A stretch of DNA of 10,637 bases from IMG/VR virus record IMGVR_UViG_2698536379_000029; one strand, 5' to 3'. The notes under the pieces were generated by a model. That model was not told the origin of the DNA. It did no database searches and saw only the letters and a list, made by a program, of their open reading frames with translations. The position numbers and the translations under genes are program-made. Position 1 is the first letter of the stretch. Each line of letters begins with the position of its first letter. This document shows, one piece after another, positions 1 to 10,637 of this stretch. This DNA is from a virus. Taxonomy: Duplodnaviria > Heunggongvirae > Uroviricota > Caudoviricetes.

Positions 1-483
1 ATGACGAAGAAAAAAGCACATAAACCTGGTTCAGCGACCATCGCGCTTAACAAGCGCGCCCGTCACGAATACTTTATTGAAGAAGAGTTCGAAGCGGGAC
101 TTGCCCTGCAAGGCTGGGAAGTTAAATCCCTGCGCGCAGGAAAAGCCAATATTAGCGACAGCTATGTCCTTCTGCGCGACGGAGAAGCGTTCCTGTTTGG
201 CGCAAACATCACGCCAATGGCTGTGGCTTCTACGCATGTGGTGTGCGATCCTACCCGTACTCGCAAGTTACTTCTCAACCAGCGCGAACTTGATTCGTTG
301 TACGGTCGCGTCAATCGAGAAGGCTATACCGTAGTGGCGCTCTCCCTGTACTGGAAAAATGCCTGGTGCAAAGTGAAAATCGGCGTCGCCAAAGGTAAGA
401 AACAGCACGATAAACGTTCAGATATCAAAGAACGCGAATGGCAGGTGGATAAAGCGCGTATCATGAAAAACGCCCACCGTTAA
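1..483 (+). CDS. smpB: SsrA-binding protein SmpB (trans-translation factor), complete 160 aa
   Basis: ATG at 1, TAA at 481-483; the 160-aa translation ([30 protein letters not shown]...) matches enterobacterial SmpB as I recall it; sits immediately upstream of ssrA as in E. coli/Salmonella. Confidence 0.95.
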
Positions 484-697: not shown

Positions 698-1060
698 GGG
701 GCTGATTCTGGATTCGACGGGATTTGCGAAACCCAAGGTGCATGCCGAGGGGCGGTTGGCCTCGTAAAAAGCCGCAAAAAATAGTCGCAAACGACGAAAA
801 CTACGCTTTAGCAGCTTAATAACCTGCTTAGAGCCCTCTCTCCCTAGCCTCCGCTCTTAGGACGGGGATCAAGAGAGGTCAAACCCAAAAGAGATCGCGT
901 GGAAGCCCTGCCTGGGGTTGAAGCGTTAAAACTTAATCAGGCTAGTTTGTTAGTGGCGTGTCCGTCCGCAGCTGGCAAGCGAATGTAAAGACTGACTAAG
1001 CATGTAGTACCGAGGATGTAGGAATTTCGGACGCGGGTTCAACTCCCGCCAGCTCCACCA
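698..1060 (+). ncRNA. ssrA: tmRNA (SsrA / 10Sa RNA), 363 nt
   Basis: Begins GGGGCTGATTCTGGATTCGACGGG and ends ...GGTTCAACTCCCGCCAGCTCCACCA (tRNA-Ala-like acceptor/T-arm with CCA); internal tag reading frame GCA AAC GAC GAA AAC TAC GCT TTA GCA GCT TAA at 787..819 encodes ANDENYALAA-stop. Confidence 0.97.
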
Positions 1061-3080: not shown

Positions 3081-3562
3081 GACAGCAGCCCTCCCACCGT
3101 TTTACTGATATCGCTTAAGGCAGACGTTGCCGTGTCCTGCAGATTATTCAGTTGCGCACTGAGATCACCGAACATATCGGACAGGGATTCATCCACCCGT
3201 TTGAGCGACAGGGTGAACTCAATCCGGCGCGGCATACCGTCGCGGAAAAACTCCGTTTTAGTCTGATTCAGTCCCTCAATCACATACATGCCGTAAATCG
3301 TGCCGCTGCCTTCAATCAGGGGCCATGCTTTCCCCTGTTCTGCCATCTGCTCCAGTACCAGCAATGACAGCCTGCCGCCTGTTATCTCCGGCATAAGAAC
3401 ACCAGAAAGCGTCAGCATGTCGTTGTCCGGTCCCAGAAACTGCGTGGACGGACGTCGGTTGACCCGGCTGTTTGCCGCATGTCGCCAGCTGCGTTGATAC
3501 TGCAGTTCCTGATACGGCACAGTGCGCAGCATAAACACGTACAATCCCAGCACCATCATCAT
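3077..3562 (-). CDS. U: P2 gpU-like tail protein, 161 aa
   Basis: MMMVLGLYVFMLRTVPYQ... start typical of P2 gpU; overlaps the T stop (3559-3562), suggesting translational coupling; T-U-D order. Confidence 0.85.
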   Translation of the reverse strand: MMMVLGLYVFMLRTVPYQELQYQRSWRHAANSRVNRRPSTQFLGPDNDMLTLSGVLMPEITGGRLSLLVLEQMAEQGKAWPLIEGSGTIYGMYVIEGLNQTKTEFFRDGMPRRIEFTLSLKRVDESLSDMFGDLSAQLNNLQDTATSALSDISKTVGGLLS

Positions 3563-6500
3563 GCGTCGTATCCCCCCTGATCGCTGTAGTTACTCCTGGC
3601 TTTTGCCTTCAGCCTGCGTTCACGTTCATCAAGCTGGCGTGCCACCTCCCGCGCAATATCCTGCGCACTTTGTCCTGGCTGCGTCTGGATGATGATCTGC
3701 GTCGGTGCCTCAATCCGTTGAGCGGGCGGCACAGTGGCTGCACGACTCACCATCGCTTCGCCGCCTTTCGCGGGAAGTGCCAAAGGATGTAACGGCGGAA
3801 GCTCTGCAGGCGCGGCAGCAACGCCCATCATTCCGGCAACAACGGCAGCCAGTGCAGCTGTATTTCTCCGACTGGTCACGTTTGCCGGACCGTTGACAAT
3901 TTCAGGCCCGTTTTCACCGACAATGCCGAACTGCCCGCGCGGGATATAGCCGCCGCTGTCATACATCCCCGCAAAGCCATATCCCCATGACGGAAAACCA
4001 CCCGATGGCATCATCACTTTACCGTCTGCATTCACCGTCGCAGGTTGCTGACGCGTCACGCTTTCCGGCAGTTTCGCCTTTGCAGCCTCTTTACTGACAA
4101 TACCGAGTTTCTCCAGCAACCAGGAAACGCCGGATTTCAGGGAGTCCAACGGATGCATGACCATATTCAGCCCTTCCGCCAGTGCCTCCCCGAATCGTCG
4201 CCCCATTGCCGCTGCGCTCTGCAGTTCGGCAGAGGTCGACTTAACAGGCGTCAGCAGATCAGTAAACCAGCCCCACAACGCCTGTACTTTGTCGCCAATC
4301 CACTGGAACACGGGCTTAAGCGGTTCGAATGCAGCACTGATGGGACCTGCCGCCGCTTTGAATCCTTCCACCACGCCACCGAGAAATGCGGTGATGGGTT
4401 GCCAGTATTTCCAGACAACCAGCGCCACGCCCGCCAGTGCAGTAACCACAAGACCTATCGGACTGAGCAGAGCACCTAACAGACCAGATACGGCATACAG
4501 GGCAACGCGCAGCATCGCCAGCGGACCGGATGCCAGCACACGCAGCACCGCGCCTGCGGCAGCCAGTCCACCGCGTAGTGCTGCCAGTGGATTCATAAAC
4601 ATCACAGCAACCGCACGTAAACCGGATAATCCAGACCGCAACAGTGCAACCGGCACACCTGCTACAGTTTTCAGGACATTCCCCGTCAGTGATGCGGTGC
4701 GGCGCAAAGACGACAACGGCGCAGTAAGTAAACCCGCTGCGTTGCCCGATGAAGCAAGCCCGCGTCGCAGCAGTGCCAGTGGAGCGCCAGCTAACCAGGA
4801 CAACGCGCTGCTGGTTCGTGTTACTGCTGCCGTAACGGAAGGTAACGTTTTGATACCCAGCACAGAGAATCCCAGACGGATGACTGCCAGCGGCCCCAGC
4901 ACTGCAGCCAGCGCCACCGCTAAGGTGCCGAGGCCTACGGTAACCGCAGCCACAACAGCCGCTACTTTCATCAGTGTGCCTGTCAGTTCCGGGTTAGCTT
5001 CCACCCAGCGGCGCAACGCCCCCGTGATGCTTTTTACCGTGTACAGAATATCCATCAGCGGCTGGCGCAGCGTTTCGCCCAGGCTGCTGAAGGTGTTCTG
5101 CGCTCCGGTTTTGACCAGCAACCACTGAGCGGAAAGTGAGTCTTTGTTGATGTCGGATTCTTTCTGCATGGAACCGAGCGCATCATTGCCCGCTGTCAGT
5201 TTTAGCTGGCGCTGCAGTTCCGGAAGGTTGTTTGCCAGTTTCGCTGCATCATCACCAAACTCTTTACCAAACAACATGGTCATGGCAGACAGACGCTTGT
5301 CCTGCGGCAGTGCGTTCACCTTCTCCAGCACACGCTGGATAGTTCCCATCGCATCCTTCGTCATCTGCTTTTCAATCACTTCAGGATTGAGTTTCAGCAG
5401 ATTCATCCCTTCAAAGAAACTCTTACTTTGCATGGTGGCAATGGACAATTCACGCACCATCGCGTTTGCTGCACTGGCAGCAACCTCCGGCGCAGCGCCC
5501 AGTGTCAGGAAGGTGGAACCCAGCGCCGCCGCTTTACGATAATCCAGACGATCTGCCACACCGCCCAGGCGTTGCATGACATCAATGATGTCTGACCCTT
5601 TCGACATGGCGTTATCATCCAGATAGTTCAGCGCATCACCGAGCTGTTCAATATTGCGGGTAGGGATTTTGTAGAGCTGGGCGATTTTCCCCAGACTTTC
5701 TGACAGTTCATCCGCTGGCAGCTCAAAGGCTGTTGCCGCCTTTGCTGCCGTGCTGGCGAAGGCCAGCAGGTCACGTTTCTGGTCTTCCCAGCTGTCGTCA
5801 GGATTTGCGACGTTCATGCGCGCACCACCTTCAACCAGTGCGGCAAAGTCCACAGCACCGTTTTCCATCGGCAACTGTTCGCTGGCAGCCTTGATGGCAT
5901 CCTGCATTTCGTAAAAACGCGCAGTGCGGTTGCCATTATCATCACGCAGACCATTGACCTGCTTTGCCACACCTTTCATGGCATCTTCCATGCTGGTATA
6001 GCTTTTTACTGCTGCCATCACTGGCGCACCCATTGCCAGCCCTGCAGCCGTGGTAGTGGCTCCGGCTCCTGCGATGCGATCGCGCACTTCAAGCCGTCTT
6101 GAGTATTGTTCTCTGGCAGCGTTCATCCGTGCCTGTTGTTCACCCAGACGTTTAAGTGCTTTTTGCTGGCCCTCCAGTGCCTGCCTTGTTTCTTCAGCAT
6201 TTTTCTTAAGTTCTCGCTGGGCACTACTGAGTTGTCTGGTATCAATCCCTGATTCTTTAAGTGCCTGACGTTGTCTCTGGACCGCCCCCAACAAGCCGTT
6301 ATAGGTCTGCTGAAGTTCCTGTACTCGTGTTTTGGCCTGACTGAATAACTTTGCCTGCGCGGCGGTTGGCCTGTTAGTGGCAGCAAATTGTGTGGCGAGT
6401 TTTGCCGCCTCTTCGCGGGCTGCGTTCAGGTTGTTGGCTGTTATGGCTAGTTGCGAGCGCGTCTTGCGAAATTCATCAATTCTGCCAGCCTGCTTATTCA

Positions 6501-6636
6501 GTTCTTTGAGGCTGTTTCGGGTATTCTGAATTGCGCCAGCCAGCTCTTTCGAACTGGCCTGTGCAACACGGAATGGGCGGGTGAGTTTGTCAACCGCATT
6601 AAGAATGACCTGCAGCCGCAGGTTGTTATCACTCAT
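3559..6636 (-). CDS. T: Phage tail tape measure protein (P2 gpT-like), 1025 aa
   Basis: Very long ORF directly after the E/E' chaperone pair; coiled-coil-like N-terminal half (Q/A/R/E/L-rich), repetitive Ala/Leu/Gly-rich hydrophobic central region, C-terminal globular region; start ATG overlaps the E+E' stop (ATGAGTGA). Confidence 0.9.
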   Translation of the reverse strand: MSDNNLRLQVILNAVDKLTRPFRVAQASSKELAGAIQNTRNSLKELNKQAGRIDEFRKTRSQLAITANNLNAAREEAAKLATQFAATNRPTAAQAKLFSQAKTRVQELQQTYNGLLGAVQRQRQALKESGIDTRQLSSAQRELKKNAEETRQALEGQQKALKRLGEQQARMNAAREQYSRRLEVRDRIAGAGATTTAAGLAMGAPVMAAVKSYTSMEDAMKGVAKQVNGLRDDNGNRTARFYEMQDAIKAASEQLPMENGAVDFAALVEGGARMNVANPDDSWEDQKRDLLAFASTAAKAATAFELPADELSESLGKIAQLYKIPTRNIEQLGDALNYLDDNAMSKGSDIIDVMQRLGGVADRLDYRKAAALGSTFLTLGAAPEVAASAANAMVRELSIATMQSKSFFEGMNLLKLNPEVIEKQMTKDAMGTIQRVLEKVNALPQDKRLSAMTMLFGKEFGDDAAKLANNLPELQRQLKLTAGNDALGSMQKESDINKDSLSAQWLLVKTGAQNTFSSLGETLRQPLMDILYTVKSITGALRRWVEANPELTGTLMKVAAVVAAVTVGLGTLAVALAAVLGPLAVIRLGFSVLGIKTLPSVTAAVTRTSSALSWLAGAPLALLRRGLASSGNAAGLLTAPLSSLRRTASLTGNVLKTVAGVPVALLRSGLSGLRAVAVMFMNPLAALRGGLAAAGAVLRVLASGPLAMLRVALYAVSGLLGALLSPIGLVVTALAGVALVVWKYWQPITAFLGGVVEGFKAAAGPISAAFEPLKPVFQWIGDKVQALWGWFTDLLTPVKSTSAELQSAAAMGRRFGEALAEGLNMVMHPLDSLKSGVSWLLEKLGIVSKEAAKAKLPESVTRQQPATVNADGKVMMPSGGFPSWGYGFAGMYDSGGYIPRGQFGIVGENGPEIVNGPANVTSRRNTAALAAVVAGMMGVAAAPAELPPLHPLALPAKGGEAMVSRAATVPPAQRIEAPTQIIIQTQPGQSAQDIAREVARQLDERERRLKAKARSNYSDQGGYDA

Positions 6637-7065
6637 CGTTGGCCCCGCTTCTCTGAATCGCTTTATACCGCCATTCCAGCACTTCGGTCAGCGGCATAAC
6701 GTCAGTAACGGATGGCGGCCAGTGAAAGATGGTGGCGATATCAGCCACCAGATCGTCAACCGTCAGGCTGTCGGTAAACCGGCAAGCACCGACTTCTTCA
6801 ACAAAAAAGTGACAACCTCAACCGACATGGCAGTGAGATCTGCCGGGTCCATCTCTGCAATTTCCTGTGCAGTCAGTGCCGGACTGGAGATACGGGGGAT
6901 CACGGTCATCATCGCGTTCACATCCATATCCATAATGGCCTGCAGGCGTGTACCGCGCAGCGCACCGGACTGCGGTTTACGCAGCACAATTTCGGTGATT
7001 TCTGTTTTACCGCGCTTGATGGGGGTATCCAGTTGAATAGTCTTTTCAGTCTGCTTATCGCTCAT
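6629..7065 (-). CDS. E': Tail assembly chaperone gpE+E' made by programmed -1 ribosomal frameshift (about 144 aa)
   Basis: I checked codon by codon that the -1 frame is open from the slippery site (6802-6808) down to a TGA at 6629-6631, which overlaps the T start codon; this mirrors the P2 E/E+E' and lambda G/GT arrangement. Confidence 0.65.
6763..7065 (-). CDS. E: Tail assembly chaperone gpE (zero-frame product), 100 aa
   Basis: Small ORF between FII and T; its 3' end contains the slippery heptamer T TTT TTG (..VTFLLKK..). Confidence 0.8.
   Translation of the reverse strand: MSDKQTEKTIQLDTPIKRGKTEITEIVLRKPQSGALRGTRLQAIMDMDVNAMMTVIPRISSPALTAQEIAEMDPADLTAMSVEVVTFLLKKSVLAGLPTA
6802..6808 (-). 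other. -1 programmed frameshift slippery heptamer TTTTTTG (minus strand)
   Basis: Plus-strand CAAAAAA at 6802-6808 is minus-strand T TTT TTG in the gpE zero frame; the -1 frame downstream is open for 57 codons. Confidence 0.65.
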
Positions 7066-7119
7066 TTTGCTGTCCTGTAAATTGGGTTCTGGCGCGGTAT
7101 CCCGCGCCGTTCAGATACA

Positions 7120-7635
7120 TCAGAGGCCGAGGGCGTTGCGGTGCGCTTCCATCAGGTCCACACCGTCCACAATTTCCACCATGTTGATAAGGTCCACTTC
7201 ATAGAGCACCTCACCATTGATGGTCAGCTTCGCGTAGCTGTTGGTACTGGTCACTTTGGTGGTGTTGCTTTCGCCCGTCTTCCACTCGCCGGAATCCACT
7301 TCTTTGTGACGTCCACGCACCACAAGCTCCACGGCCTGCACTTCCCCGGTATCGTCACGCTGGATAGAGCCGGTAAAGCGCAGCTGAATGCCATCTACCG
7401 TGGCTTTGCCCATCTGCTTAAACAGCAGCAGTTCAGTACCACCAATGGAAAATTCTGTGTCCAGCGCACTGTCATCAAGCCCCAGATCCACATCCACTGC
7501 ACCCGGCATTCCGCCGCCGCGATACTTCTCATATTTGCGGGTGAATTTCGGCAGCGTCAGCGACTCAACGATCCCCTGCCAGTTGTTCCCGTCGTTAAAC
7601 AGGTTCAGATGTTTTAATTTGCGTGGTAAAGCCAT
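7120..7635 (-). CDS. FII: Tail tube protein (P2 gpFII-like), 171 aa
   Basis: MALPRKLKHLNLF... N-terminus and length characteristic of P2 FII; lies 9 bp downstream of FI. Confidence 0.9.
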   Translation of the reverse strand: MALPRKLKHLNLFNDGNNWQGIVESLTLPKFTRKYEKYRGGGMPGAVDVDLGLDDSALDTEFSIGGTELLLFKQMGKATVDGIQLRFTGSIQRDDTGEVQAVELVVRGRHKEVDSGEWKTGESNTTKVTSTNSYAKLTINGEVLYEVDLINMVEIVDGVDLMEAHRNALGL

Positions 7636-8911: not shown

Positions 8912-8921
8912 AAATGACGGT

Positions 8922-9526
8922 ATTTGTCTACTTGCAGGGATAATCAAAATAATGCTGATTCAGGGGGATTCATTACTCTTATTTGCCGGAAATTTTCTAT
9001 AAATTGTGGAAACACCCACATCAAAAATCAGTGCAATACGCTGTCTTGATTCTCCGGCCTCGAGTAAACGCCCAATCTGTGCCCACTGTTCGGTGGTCAA
9101 CTTAGGACGGCGTCCACCTACTCTGCCTTTGGCACGAGCTGCAGCCAGCCCTGCCCTGGTACGTTCAACTATCAGTTCGCGTTCCATTTCAGCCAGGGCA
9201 CCCATGACATGAAAAAAGAAACGGCCCATTGGGGTACTGGTATCAATACTGTCAGTCAGGCTTCGGAAATTCACACCACGCTGGCGCAACTCCTCTATCA
9301 GCGTAACAAGATGCCGCATACTGCGCCCCAACCTGTCCAGCTTCCAGACAACCAGCGTGTCTCCTGCCGATAGTGTCCTGAGCAGCTTTTTCAGCCCCGG
9401 TCTGTCGGACTTAGTGCCACTGATTTTATCCTCAAAAATCCGCTCACATCCCGCGCAGTTCAGTGCATTACGTTGCAAATCGGTGTTCTGGTCATTTGTT
9501 GACACGCGTACATAGCCAATAAGCAT
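8922..9526. repeat. Direct repeat copy A (at least 605 bp, period 1111 bp)
   Basis: 8922..9526 is identical base for base to 10033..10637 in my reading; identity starts one base after a t/a mismatch at 8921/10032. Confidence 0.9.
8960..9526 (-). CDS. Site-specific DNA invertase, serine recombinase of the Pin/Gin/Cin/Hin family, 188 aa (copy 1)
   Basis: MLIGYVRVSTNDQNTDLQRNAL... with the catalytic Ser in the YVRVST motif and a C-terminal HTH (GVSTIYRKFPA); strongly resembles E. coli Pin / Mu Gin as I recall them. Two in-frame ATGs lie upstream (9532 and 9526); I chose 9526 by family alignment. Confidence 0.9.
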   Translation of the reverse strand: MLIGYVRVSTNDQNTDLQRNALNCAGCERIFEDKISGTKSDRPGLKKLLRTLSAGDTLVVWKLDRLGRSMRHLVTLIEELRQRGVNFRSLTDSIDTSTPMGRFFFHVMGALAEMERELIVERTRAGLAAARAKGRVGGRRPKLTTEQWAQIGRLLEAGESRQRIALIFDVGVSTIYRKFPANKSNESP

Positions 9527-9553
9527 GATCATCCCCCTGAATAAAAACCGGAG

Positions 9554-9952
9554 ATGATGCCAGTTAGCCGTTATCTCTGCATTTTCATAAACGTTGGTTT
9601 GGGAGAAGCGGCGAAAAGGGATGTGGGCACAGGAGATAATCAGATACCGGATATGGGAGCATTCGCTTCTGGTTCGGGATGGTTCAGGCTACCAGGTGGA
9701 TATATTGTTCAGTTTGGCACTTTTGCAGGAAACACGACCCGCTTTATCAGTGGACACTTCCCTATACCATTCCCTAATCAGCCGATGGTTTCAGTCAGTG
9801 TTATGTCTGATGCCGTTCAGTCAGACCCGTCGATTCCTGCCCCGCAGGTTTTGTCTGTAAATTTTGAACATATCAGTAATTCAGCGTGGCGTGTGGCAAC
9901 CAGTGATATCTCACAGCAATACAGATTCAGTTATATTTCGATAGGACGGTAG
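9554..9952 (+). CDS. Promoterless tail-fibre C-terminal (receptor-binding) cassette in silent orientation; true coding part probably begins at the crossover site
   Basis: ORF reads through the crossover site and away from the invertase; contains a tail-fibre-tip-like motif (GWFRLPGGYIVQFG); followed 2 bp later by the ATG of a tail-fibre assembly gene, the Sv'-U' arrangement of Mu/P1 invertible segments. It is on the opposite strand to the late operon, so not expressed as arranged. Confidence 0.45.
   Translation: MMPVSRYLCIFINVGLGEAAKRDVGTGDNQIPDMGAFASGSGWFRLPGGYIVQFGTFAGNTTRFISGHFPIPFPNQPMVSVSVMSDAVQSDPSIPAPQVLSVNFEHISNSAWRVATSDISQQYRFSYISIGR
9583..9608. other. Candidate 26-bp recombination crossover site (hix/gix/cix-like)
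   Basis: TTTTCATAAACG TT GGTTTGGGAGAA: two imperfect inverted 12-bp half-sites around a 2-bp core, fitting the pattern TT-TC--AAAC(C)--GGTTT--GA-AA; about 55 bp upstream of the invertase start, as for gixR-gin and cix-cin. Confidence 0.5.
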
Positions 9953-9954
9953 AA

Positions 9955-10113
9955 ATGCAGAAATATATTTTCAGTGCCGATAAAAATGCGTTTTTCCCTG
10001 TGGAGCTTAAAATCGCTTATCAGGAATCCGGAATTTGTCTACTTGCAGGGATAATCAAAATAATGCTGATTCAGGGGGATTCATTACTCTTATTTGCCGG
10101 AAATTTTCTATAA
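9955..10113 (+). pseudogene. Tail-fibre assembly protein (Tfa/gpG/U-like) 5' fragment, truncated at the duplication junction
   Basis: MQKYIFSADKNAFFPVELKIAYQESG... resembles Tfa N-termini; after codon 26 (position 10032/10033) the frame runs into the repeated invertase-downstream sequence and stops at 10113. Confidence 0.4.
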
Positions 10114-10637
10114 ATTGTGGAAACACCCACATCAAAAATCAGTGCAATACGCTGTCTTGATTCTCCGGCCTCGAGTAAACGCCCAATCTGTGCCCACTGT
10201 TCGGTGGTCAACTTAGGACGGCGTCCACCTACTCTGCCTTTGGCACGAGCTGCAGCCAGCCCTGCCCTGGTACGTTCAACTATCAGTTCGCGTTCCATTT
10301 CAGCCAGGGCACCCATGACATGAAAAAAGAAACGGCCCATTGGGGTACTGGTATCAATACTGTCAGTCAGGCTTCGGAAATTCACACCACGCTGGCGCAA
10401 CTCCTCTATCAGCGTAACAAGATGCCGCATACTGCGCCCCAACCTGTCCAGCTTCCAGACAACCAGCGTGTCTCCTGCCGATAGTGTCCTGAGCAGCTTT
10501 TTCAGCCCCGGTCTGTCGGACTTAGTGCCACTGATTTTATCCTCAAAAATCCGCTCACATCCCGCGCAGTTCAGTGCATTACGTTGCAAATCGGTGTTCT
10601 GGTCATTTGTTGACACGCGTACATAGCCAATAAGCAT
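10033..10637. repeat. Direct repeat copy B (truncated by the window end)
   Basis: See copy A; whether identity continues past 10637 (a full 1111-bp tandem unit) cannot be seen here. Confidence 0.9.
10071..10637 (-). CDS. Site-specific DNA invertase, Pin/Gin/Hin family, 188 aa (copy 2, identical to copy 1)
   Basis: Nucleotide-identical to 8960..9526; its ATG is the last three bases of the window (10635-10637). Confidence 0.85.
   Translation of the reverse strand: MLIGYVRVSTNDQNTDLQRNALNCAGCERIFEDKISGTKSDRPGLKKLLRTLSAGDTLVVWKLDRLGRSMRHLVTLIEELRQRGVNFRSLTDSIDTSTPMGRFFFHVMGALAEMERELIVERTRAGLAAARAKGRVGGRRPKLTTEQWAQIGRLLEAGESRQRIALIFDVGVSTIYRKFPANKSNESP

Follow-up and report, generated by a model that had tools for sequence, protein, structure and literature searches.

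An E. coli prophage of the P2-like kind (Peduoviridae, Elveevirus-type) that adjoins ssrA very probably carries an orthologue of the tail assembly chaperone pair gpE/gpE+E' of phage P2, the longer member of which would arise by a -1 slip of the ribosome at a T_TTT_TTG heptamer. The stretch of DNA analyzed, here called the window, is the 10,637-nucleotide IMG/VR record IMGVR_UViG_2698536379_000029. We observed directly the anatomy of the locus, the homology of the products of both frames to known families and the presence of a conserved heptamer and a conserved -1 frame across relatives. Slippage in the phage studied, its ratio and the chaperone mechanism are what we infer, with the product, ratio and essentiality extrapolated from P2. 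A -1 frameshift that yields E and E+E' is already known and ordinary biology, and its sequence hallmarks are confirmed here.

In the proposed mechanism, the majority of ribosomes would finish E (100 amino acids [aa]) at its own stop codon, and a minority would step back by one nucleotide with TTT and TTG in the P and A sites. The tRNAs would re-pair with TTT TTT and the -1 frame would be read for 57 codons, giving E+E' (145 aa), which would terminate at a TGA overlapping the start codon of the tape measure gene. The slip would thereby set a roughly fixed ratio of E to E+E'. By analogy with the G/GT pair of phage lambda, the N-terminal part shared by both proteins would form a coat on the tape measure protein, and the rare fusion would use its E' domain to bring in the tube protein, at which point tail polymerization would start. 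Neither E nor E+E' would be expected to stay in the virion.

Anatomy of the E/E' locus

The coordinates of all features are collected in Table 1. A preliminary description, made from the sequence alone, had placed a TTTTTTG close to the gpE frame's 3' end and, from there on, a -1 frame open for 57 codons up to a TGA that overlaps the tape-measure ATG. Both elements are present as described. The first T of the heptamer is the third base of an ACT codon, which puts it in X_XXY_YYZ phase, and the E stop follows 12 codons later; no other in-phase X_XXY_YYZ heptamer occurs within E. Past the slip, the -1 frame contains 57 sense codons, from GTT (6802..6800) to GAG (6634..6632), before it reaches the TGA, and this stop overlaps the tape-measure ATG within ATGAGTGA. 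According to Pfam domains and the annotation of phage Cartapus, the gene order in the window is FI-FII-E-T-U-D, with E/E' flanked by the genes for the tail tube (FII) and the tape measure (T), an arrangement shared with P2.

Table 1. Features of the E/E' locus and its neighborhood in the window
Feature	Coordinates	Strand	Evidence
Gene E (0 frame), 100-aa tail assembly chaperone	6763..7065 (ATG 7065..7063, TGA 6765..6763)	minus	ORF list and translation; PF10109; phrog_103
Slippery heptamer T_TTT_TTG (0-frame codons ACT TTT TTG), putative -1 shift site	6802..6808	minus	Phase checked; conserved T6 run; P2 annotation
E', -1 frame extension, 57 codons (6802..6632) and TGA (6631..6629)	6629..6802	minus	Translation; PF06528; phrog_1756; periodicity
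Predicted composite CDS E+E', join(7065..6802, 6802..6629), 145 aa (88 from the 0 frame, 57 from the -1 frame)	6629..7065	minus	Built by analogy with the P2 join
ATGAGTGA, tape-measure ATG (6636..6634) overlapping E' stop (6631..6629)	6629..6636	minus	Sequence
Gene T, tape measure protein, 1025 aa, presumed chaperone client	3559..6636	minus	Pfam PhageMin_Tail, E = 1.2e-18; P2 GpT homologue in Cartapus annotation
Gene FII, tail tube protein, directly upstream of E	7120..7635	minus	Pfam Phage_tube, E = 8.8e-60
39-aa ORF from GTG 6748, pipeline name 'GpE family phage tail protein'	6629..6748	minus	Annotation of Cartapus, CP019275 and listed RefSeq E. coli
Shine-Dalgarno-like GAGGT, 6 nt upstream of the heptamer, candidate 5' modulator	6815..6819	minus	Sequence; positional enrichment

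A -1 slip that follows decoding of TTT-TTG would produce the junction ...VTFL|VEEVGA... in a protein of 145 aa, and a slip of the P-site tRNA only, after which the A site is read as TTT, would produce ...VTFF|VEEVGA.... The junction peptide that had been proposed at first, VTFL-FVEEVGA, contains one F too many and is corrected by these two forms. The predicted junction peptides are VTFLVEEVGACR or VTFFVEEVGACR, inside a longer peptide of an E+E' of approximately 16 kDa; in the predicted tryptic peptide of 38 residues the two variants would read ...ISSPALTAQEIAEMDPADLTAMSVEVVTFLVEEVGACR and ...VTFFVEEVGACR. A peptide specific to E' is predicted to have the sequence FTDSLTVDDLVADIATIFHWPPSVTDVMPLTEVLEWR.

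Both frames encode members of known tail protein families

The 0-frame product matched the Pfam family PF10109 (Phage_TAC_7) with 67.5 bits against a gathering cutoff of 25 (E = 1e-18), the match spanning residues 9-88 and model positions 1-78 of 79; E also matched phrog_103, 'tail protein' (E = 4.4e-44). The -1 part matched PF06528 (Phage_P2_GpE) with 65.5 bits against a cutoff of 23 (E = 2.9e-18), over fusion residues 107-143 and model positions 1-37 of 37, and phrog_1756 aligned to residues 3-57 of the extension (E = 1.8e-22). PF10109 and PF06528 were the only families returned by a Pfam scan of E and the fusion (E <= 0.01), with no match to the lambda gpG/gpT families, and a profile search of the PDB returned no related solved structure.

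The heptamer and the -1 frame across relatives

When the fusion was used as a tblastn query, 388 of 425 phage records covered at least 80% of it, and every such match among those listed fell into two pieces corresponding to the two frames. We considered a panel of 17 diverse loci drawn from Escherichia, Salmonella, Klebsiella, Erwinia, Burkholderia, Ralstonia, Pseudomonas, Vibrio, Mannheimia, Acidovorax and Zymomonas. In every one of the 17, the homologous region contains an X_XXY_YYZ heptamer that is in phase, and a -1 extension of 51-71 aa comes after it. The heptamer is located at a conserved Phe column in 16 of these loci and in a nearby insertion in Mannheimia. The forms tolerated across the panel are T6G, T6A, T6C, T7, GGGAAAG, AAATTTT and CCCTTTC. 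The codon that precedes TTT always ends in T, and the residue that it encodes varies (T, G, L, D or S). All of the more closely related viral contigs have the T6 run (80/80), with TTTTTTG in 73 and TTTTTTA in 7, and in 56 distinct sequences this run is kept while the flanking third positions vary freely.

The -1 frame itself is conserved as well. The alignment of the 17 phages contains 12 invariant columns, and the periodicity of substitutions follows first the 0 frame and then, further along the locus, the -1 frame: entropy by codon position is 0.19/0.11/0.78 for the 0 frame upstream and 0.17/0.07/0.43 for the -1 frame past the E stop, in the segment unique to E'. By this measure, purifying selection acts on the -1 frame as coding sequence. 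Poor conservation of this frame had been named beforehand as one observation that would speak against a frameshift; the opposite was seen, with 6 of the 12 invariant columns in the -1 part and a periodicity in that frame. The initial assignment to the conserved frameshift of tail assembly chaperones likewise stands, given the Phage_TAC_7 and Phage_P2_GpE domains, the synteny with P2 and the heptamers in 17 of 17 loci.

Alternative explanations for the open -1 frame

E' could be a separate small gene with an independent start at GTG 6748, encoding a free 39-aa 'GpE family' protein with no need for a frameshift. This is how PGAP and most phage annotations would have it, and GTG or ATG indeed occupies the position of GTG 6748 in 12 of 17 relatives, the PF06528 model covers just the 37-residue stretch and the invariant E' residues all lie downstream of that position. 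However, the remaining 5 of the 17 have GCC, GTT, TGG, ATC or ATT there rather than a start codon, and no convincing Shine-Dalgarno sequence precedes the E' start in any locus, the values of -1 to -6.8 kcal/mol (-4.5 kcal/mol in the window) being those of the background. Moreover, none of the 17 loci has a -1 stop in the linker of 12-29 codons between that position and the heptamer, in several of them (the window, P2, PSP3 and SEN4) this frame opens only 0-9 nt before the heptamer, and the phrog_1756 alignment begins at residue 3 of the extension. A separate E' gene would also leave the invariance of the heptamer at synonymous sites unexplained, and P2 is stated to make the fusion protein in the account that PMC3091744 gives, citing Christie 2002. 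We consider independent initiation of E' very improbable, and annotation of the 39-aa ORF most likely results from overlooking the frameshift.

The same product could also be reached if RNA polymerase slipped on the T6/A6 run, so that a fraction of the transcripts would lack one base or have two extra and be translated normally into E+E'. Transcriptional slippage is known at bacterial homopolymer runs (PMC5009743), and the site is a homopolymer of six T in the window and in most relatives; T6 runs can support such slippage at a low level. Nevertheless, efficient slippage in bacteria has been described on runs of approximately nine A or T, compared to which six is short (PMC5009743), and the homologous sites GGGAAAG, AAATTTT and CCCTTTC contain no run of six but preserve the X_XXY_YYZ re-pairing logic. 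These variants point to tandem tRNA slippage rather than to slippage of RNA polymerase. Furthermore, the run strictly keeps its phase with respect to the 0 frame, something that tRNA slippage leads one to expect and that polymerase slippage does not need, and the literature treats the P2 site as translational (PMC3091744, PMC5009743). An origin of E+E' at the level of transcription appears to us to have only a slim chance of being correct.

Finally, the heptamer and the open frame might be a coincidence or a relic without function in the prophage studied, a reading with which the chance expectations agree (see below) but which, judged by the Pfam and PHROG homology of the -1 product, the invariant columns, the periodicity of purifying selection in the -1 frame and conservation over 17 plus 80 loci and 999 E. 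coli genomes, appears effectively refuted. As for these expectations, TTTTTTG is not over-represented in the window (2 copies, 2.9 expected), and an open -1 frame of 57 codons is only mildly unlikely on its own (P of ∼0.03 from the density of -1 stops in E and 0.08 from shuffles). The significance of the putative slippage site comes from its phase, its position, the homology of the -1 product (E = 2.9e-18) and conservation, and not from the heptamer alone.

Sequence context of the slippery site

No stem-loop or pseudoknot was found 5-9 nt past the heptamer. When the 62 and 102 nt that follow it were folded, the window gave z values of -0.62 and -1.98; shuffle z values in the 17-locus panel ranged from -1.3 to +1.9, and alifold on 32 distinct relatives yielded a weak consensus of -5 kcal/mol with little two-sided covariation. 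The P2 site has likewise been reported to be without downstream structure (PMC3091744). Because no conserved downstream structure was found, the shift would apparently depend on the heptamer alone.

On the upstream side, the anti-Shine-Dalgarno pairing just ahead of the heptamer is strong relative to other gene positions in 11 of 17 loci, and GAG (in GAGGT) has a third base that is invariant across 56 distinct relatives. Measured against synonymous recodings of the same residues, the Shine-Dalgarno-like signal showed no excess (Fisher p = 0.17; window p = 0.41). An [E/K]-V-[V/I] motif in the protein probably explains most of it, and at the level of sequence the GAGGT signal is indistinguishable from amino-acid constraint.

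Comparison with P2, lambda and cellular frameshift sites

In the P2 record, gpE and a joined CDS for gpE+E' are annotated, and TTTTTTG carries the label 'site of -1 translational frameshift'. The heptamer named beforehand for P2 is indeed the same and occupies the homologous position. In the summaries of experimental work on P2, E has 91 aa, E+E' has 142 aa and the site is TTTTTTG (PMC3091744; also PMC5009743; Christie 2002, J Bacteriol 184:6522); a P2 join that we built in the same way as that for the window reproduced the published 142 aa (PMC3091744). The same summaries state that the P2 fusion is made at a fixed frequency of several percent and that E as well as E+E' is essential if tails are to assemble (PMC3091744, PMC5009743, citing Christie 2002). 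The two loci have common Pfam families in both frames, TTTTTTG at the identical alignment column (..V-x-F-L|V..), a 57-codon -1 extension, the location between FII and T, no downstream hairpin and an 8-nt overlap of E' stop and T start, which reads ATGAGTGA here and ATGAGTAA in P2. They differ in that the fusions share only ∼49% amino-acid identity, in the lengths of E (100 aa here, 91 aa in P2) and of the fusion (145 aa versus 142 aa), and in the tape measure protein, which has 1025 aa here and ∼815 aa in P2 (gpT, record 19850..22297). The greater length of E comes from the codons after the heptamer, of which there are 12 here and 6 in P2.

Named phages related to the window are Escherichia phage Cartapus, phage 500465-1 and Klebsiella phage 4LV2017 (Peduoviridae, Elveevirus), as well as Salmonella phages SEN8 and Fels-2 (Felsduovirus). 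Cartapus DNA is 99.8% identical to the window and that of 500465-1 is 96-97% identical; SEN8, at 86% amino-acid identity, shares both the heptamer and ATGAGTGA with it. The biology in these five phages is presumably identical to that in the window phage.

The gpG/gpGT pair of lambda follows the same logic at the same genome position. Its heptamer, G_GGA_AAG, differs from T_TTT_TTG, the Pfam scan of E and the fusion detected no sequence similarity, and lambda, in contrast, is a siphovirus with a non-contractile tail. The lambda chaperones are described as binding the tape measure, recruiting the tube protein and being absent from virions in studies known here as cited in PMC5009743 (Levin 1993; Xu, Hendrix & Duda 2004, 2013, 2014). 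The lambda ratio is ∼30:1, and P2 and its relatives are reported to shift with 2-3 times the efficiency of lambda (PMC5009743). E/E+E' thus seems to work like G/GT and is not, by sequence, a member of the G/GT family.

Similarities extend to E. coli dnaX and insertion sequence (IS) elements, which have in common with the window an X_XXY_YYZ tandem-slippage site, the E. coli translation system and an upstream Shine-Dalgarno-like sequence. The optimal Shine-Dalgarno spacing reported for dnaX is 10-14 nt, and the 6-nt spacing of GAGGT here is shorter. In dnaX and IS911, a 5' Shine-Dalgarno sequence and a 3' stem-loop accompany a shift of ∼50% (PMC5009743), whereas in the window no 3' structure was found and the Shine-Dalgarno-like element is inseparable from the amino-acid constraint.

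Absence of the predicted fusion from the closest phage and E. coli annotations

That ORF callers would miss the fusion had been anticipated, and this proved to be the case: the records of Cartapus, CP019275, SEN8 and the listed RefSeq E. coli give E and a separate 39-aa E' ORF with no ribosomal-slippage join. The E/E' module is present in 999 of 5,426 complete E. coli RefSeq genomes, and PGAP annotation of ∼1,000 such complete genomes turns E' into a 'GpE family' gene of 39 aa, as seen in records among the matches listed. E+E' is missed because the records contain this free-standing gene in place of the 145-aa product with a ribosomal-slippage join. The split E' is an annotation gap and not new biology. 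The scientific gain is small, as the locus is orthologous to a recoding event found in textbooks and shares the heptamer and the geometry of P2, and the practical value lies in annotation: anyone who searches proteomics data or engineers phages or tailocins from the split annotation would miss a protein that, by analogy with P2, is essential for tail assembly.

Gene junctions flanking the tape measure gene

The overlap 8-mer ATGAGTGA was found in 75 of 76 distinct related sequences, and P2, ENT90 and PSP3 have ATGAGTAA at the overlap of E' stop and T start. Since only frameshifted ribosomes terminate right at the tape-measure start codon, this conserved overlap raises the idea that the frameshift may do more than make E+E', with tape-measure synthesis partly coupled to the E+E' branch by termination-reinitiation. 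A second, weaker possibility is that the candidate Shine-Dalgarno-like GAGGT/GAGGTG 6 nt upstream of the heptamer may tune the slip rate. Taken jointly, we regard these two ideas as speculative and rather unlikely. If true, termination-reinitiation coupling would tie together the amounts of the rare chaperone and of its low-copy client, the tape measure protein.

At the other end of the tape measure gene, we considered a second frameshift at the T/U junction, where the -1 frame at G_GGG_GGA (3577..3571) is the U frame. This candidate was rejected because only 9 nt separate the G-run from the U ATG, a place taken by TAAGGAGGTGA in P2, and because T and U do not overlap in P2. The G-run is conserved in Fels-2, SEN8, ST11-VIM1phi8.4 and ST437-OXA245phi4.1 and, from its position, is best read as the probable ribosome-binding site of U.

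Predicted frameshift site and products of E / E+E'

All E-region genes of the window are encoded on the minus strand. E, the 0-frame tail assembly chaperone gene, contains a slippery TTTTTTG heptamer that begins with the last base of an ACT codon. This 0-frame reading places the heptamer in the X_XXY_YYZ phase required for tandem -1 tRNA slippage. The 57 residues encoded by the -1 extension E' read VEEVGACRFTDSLTVDDLVADIATIFHWPPSVTDVMPLTEVLEWRYKAIQRSGANDE, and the stop codon of this frame lies together with the start codon of the tape measure gene T within ATGAGTGA. The predicted fusion E+E' comprises 145 aa (88 + 57) with the junction ...VTFL|VEEVGA..., which reads ...VTFF|VEEVGA... if the P-site tRNA alone slips, the A site then being read as TTT. 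The preliminary description, which had assigned a programmed -1 frameshift to positions 6629-7065, was accurate in its coordinates, in the presence and phase of TTTTTTG, in the 57 open -1 codons and in the overlap of their TGA with the tape-measure ATG. Its junction peptide, VTFL-FVEEVGA, carried one surplus F.

Positions of the E / E+E' elements and of other features of the window
Feature	Position	Strand	Details
smpB	1-483		Pfam SmpB
ssrA (tmRNA gene)	698-1060		tag ANDENYALAA
T/U overlap, ATGA	3562..3559		
G_GGG_GGA	3577..3571	minus	in phase, 5 codons before T stop; -1 frame is the U frame
-1 extension E'	from G of TTG to stop TGA 6631..6629	minus	57 sense codons
T	ATG 6636..6634	minus	1025-codon ORF
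Pipeline-annotated 39-aa ORF	6629-6748	minus	from GTG 6748
TTTTTTG heptamer	6808..6802	minus	0 frame ACT TTT TTG
SD-like GAGGT	6819..6815	minus	6 nt upstream of heptamer
E	ATG 7065 to TGA 6765..6763	minus	100 codons
FII-E hairpin	7108..7091	minus	between FII stop (7122..7120) and E start
Repeat unit	8918-10028		repeated from 10029 to window end
DNA invertase, two copies	8960..9532; 10071..10637	minus	Pfam Resolvase + HTH_7
Duplicated ORF	9554..9952	plus	adjacent to invertase

Relationship to the P2 gpE/gpE+E' family

The 100-aa E product matched Phage_TAC_7 (67.5 bits, cutoff 25) and phrog_103 ('tail protein'), while residues 107-143 of the fusion, in its -1 part, matched Phage_P2_GpE (65.5 bits, cutoff 23, E = 2.9e-18) and residues 3-57 of the extension matched phrog_1756 ('tail protein'). 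Pfam identified the tail sheath FI, tail tube FII, tape measure T, gpU and gpD around E, and this gene order is the FETUD order of P2. With Escherichia phage Cartapus (Peduoviridae, Elveevirus) the window shares 99.8% identity, and with phage 500465-1 it shares 96-97%. At the left end of the window, smpB is followed by ssrA, which lies directly before the prophage tail/late-control genes; the P2-like prophage thus adjoins the tmRNA gene, which suggests integration at ssrA.

A tblastn search with the 145-aa fusion matched 425 phage records, and in 388 of these a single place spanned at least 80% of the query; among the matches listed at that coverage, every one was split into two segments lying in different frames. 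P2 (AF063097) showed 49% identity to the fusion. Its record contains gpE and a joined gpE+E' CDS labelled '-1 frameshift; essential tail protein', and its 'site of -1 translational frameshift' marks where the identical TTTTTTG ends, in agreement with the preliminary description, which named this heptamer for P2. The join is also annotated in PSP3, KL3 and L-413C. The P2 shift takes place at TTTTTTG and yields an E of 91 aa and an E+E' of 142 aa, the site is kept in Burkholderia P2-like phages, and a hairpin downstream of the P2 site is absent (PMC3091744); the P2 fusion rebuilt here was 142 aa long. With one exception, the defining sequence features of P2 gpE/gpE+E' were all found at E / E+E'; the exception is the lack of an initiation site belonging to E' itself, on which the window is ambiguous in that it has GTG 6748. 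We conclude that E / E+E' is by sequence a member of this family and is predicted to work as the family does.

For lambda, a G:GT ratio of ∼30:1 has been reported, with P2-type frameshift efficiency 2-3 fold higher, and a chaperone model of tail assembly has been described (PMC5009743). E / E+E' would work like lambda G/GT, but according to the Pfam scan they are not sequence members of that family. Cassettes of the dnaX/IS911 type have a 3' stem-loop, whereas the window site is without one. The E / E+E' frameshift is already known, and its biology is neither new nor surprising. In the closest phage records, as in E. coli genomes of RefSeq, E' stands as a separate 39-aa 'GpE family phage tail protein' without a slippage join; since 999 of the 5,426 complete genomes of E. 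coli contain the E/E' module, this annotation gap is widespread.

Conservation and alternative explanations

We compared 17 loci from the window, P2, SEN8, ST11-VIM1phi8.4, ENT90, PSP3, two Burkholderia phages, Ralstonia, phiCTX, ST16-OXA48phi5.4, SEN4, Mannheimia, Vibrio MAR, Acidovorax, E. coli 503458 and Zymomonas. Each of the 17 carried, within the homologous region, a slippery heptamer that was in phase and led into a -1 extension of 51-71 aa. The heptamer fell at a conserved Phe column in 16 loci, and in Mannheimia in a nearby insertion. It was TTTTTTG in 12 loci and TTTTTTC, TTTTTTT, GGGAAAG, AAATTTT or CCCTTTC in the rest. The codon preceding TTT ended in T throughout, yet encoded T, G, L, D or S depending on the phage, so that the constraint lies on the RNA and not on the protein. 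Six of the 12 invariant columns of the protein alignment belonged to the -1 part (D109, E128, W132, R133, A136 and R139). Among 80 closer IMG/VR loci the T6 run was invariant (73 TTTTTTG, 7 TTTTTTA), and ATGAGTGA was retained in 75 of 76 distinct sequences.

In 56 distinct sequences aligning without gaps, entropy at codon positions 1/2/3 was 0.19/0.11/0.78 upstream of the heptamer, fitting the 0 frame, and 0.17/0.07/0.43 after the E stop, fitting the -1 frame. The third positions of ACT and TTT at the heptamer did not vary at all in these sequences, against entropies of 1.1-1.5 at neighbouring third positions. Poor conservation of the -1 frame in relatives, named in the preliminary description as evidence against the frameshift, was clearly absent from both panel and entropy data.

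According to the PGAP annotation, the 39-aa E' would initiate independently at GTG 6748. This appears highly improbable: a start codon is missing at that position in 5 of the 17 relatives, a convincing SD sequence precedes it in none of the 17 loci, and the linker back to the heptamer (12-29 codons) is open throughout the panel. Moreover, in the window, P2, PSP3 and SEN4 the distance from the opening of the -1 frame to the heptamer is just 0-9 nt, and the phrog_1756 homology begins at residue 3 of the extension. It is just as hard to credit that transcriptional slippage on the T6 run makes the frame change, since six T are short relative to the ∼9-nt runs described for bacterial slippage, and the non-homopolymeric heptamers of relatives suit tRNA re-pairing rather than polymerase slippage.

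The heptamer by itself showed no excess over chance (2 TTTTTTG in the whole window, 2.9 expected), and nine window genes contained five in-phase X_XXY_YYZ heptamers, only one of them in E. The probability of an open 57-codon -1 frame was ∼0.03 when calculated from how often -1 stops occur elsewhere in E, and 0.08 by shuffles. The case for the frameshift rests chiefly on homology and conservation. Coincidence is ruled out by the Pfam match of the -1 product, the invariant -1 columns and the entropy periodicity.

Probable mechanism of the frameshift

No downstream stimulatory structure was found in the 62 nt (z = -0.62) or 102 nt (z = -1.98) past the heptamer, nor in the downstream folds of the 17 loci (z from -1.3 to +1.9), and 32 distinct relatives gave a weak consensus fold with little two-sided covariation. 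Upstream of the heptamer lies an SD-like GAGGT, whose GAG keeps its third base unchanged across 56 distinct relatives; many relatives carry GAGGTG or GAGGTGATC. Anti-SD pairing at this site was in the top 5% of same-gene positions in 11 of 17 loci, that of the window only at 11%. It did not exceed that of synonymous recodings of the same residues (Fisher p = 0.17; window p = 0.41), so the element is inseparable from the conserved [E/K]-V-[V/I] residues. Simple tandem slippage on the heptamer, at a modest fixed rate, would be the likeliest mechanism. The conserved ATGAGTGA overlap may additionally couple T initiation to termination of frameshifted ribosomes.

Other features of the window

Between FII and E lies a GC-rich 7-bp hairpin with a tetraloop and without a U-tail (GGCGCGG-GAUA-CCGCGCC); the 60-nt intergenic region has a fold z of -2.45. 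A rho-independent terminator is annotated at the same junction in a Mannheimia P2-like phage record. The hairpin may be an attenuator or a processing/stability element, keeping E-T-U-D expression below that of the sheath and tube genes.

The right end of the window consists of a direct repeat in tandem, exact and with a unit of 1,111 bp, which duplicates a Gin/Hin-type DNA invertase and the adjacent plus-strand ORF. In the best-matching E. coli RefSeq genomes, only 1,332 nt of the record cover the 1,938-nt query; these genomes thus have a single repeat copy, and the duplication either belongs to the source genome alone or arose through faulty assembly of the tail-fibre inversion region.

Near the T stop, Fels-2, SEN8, ST11-VIM1phi8.4 and ST437-OXA245phi4.1 conserve an in-phase G-run at Gly-Gly codons where synonymous change would be free. 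A second frameshift at this site was rejected, because the run precedes the U ATG by 9 nt and P2, in which T and U do not overlap, has the canonical TAAGGAGGTGA at its position. The best explanation of the G-run is that it serves U as ribosome-binding site.
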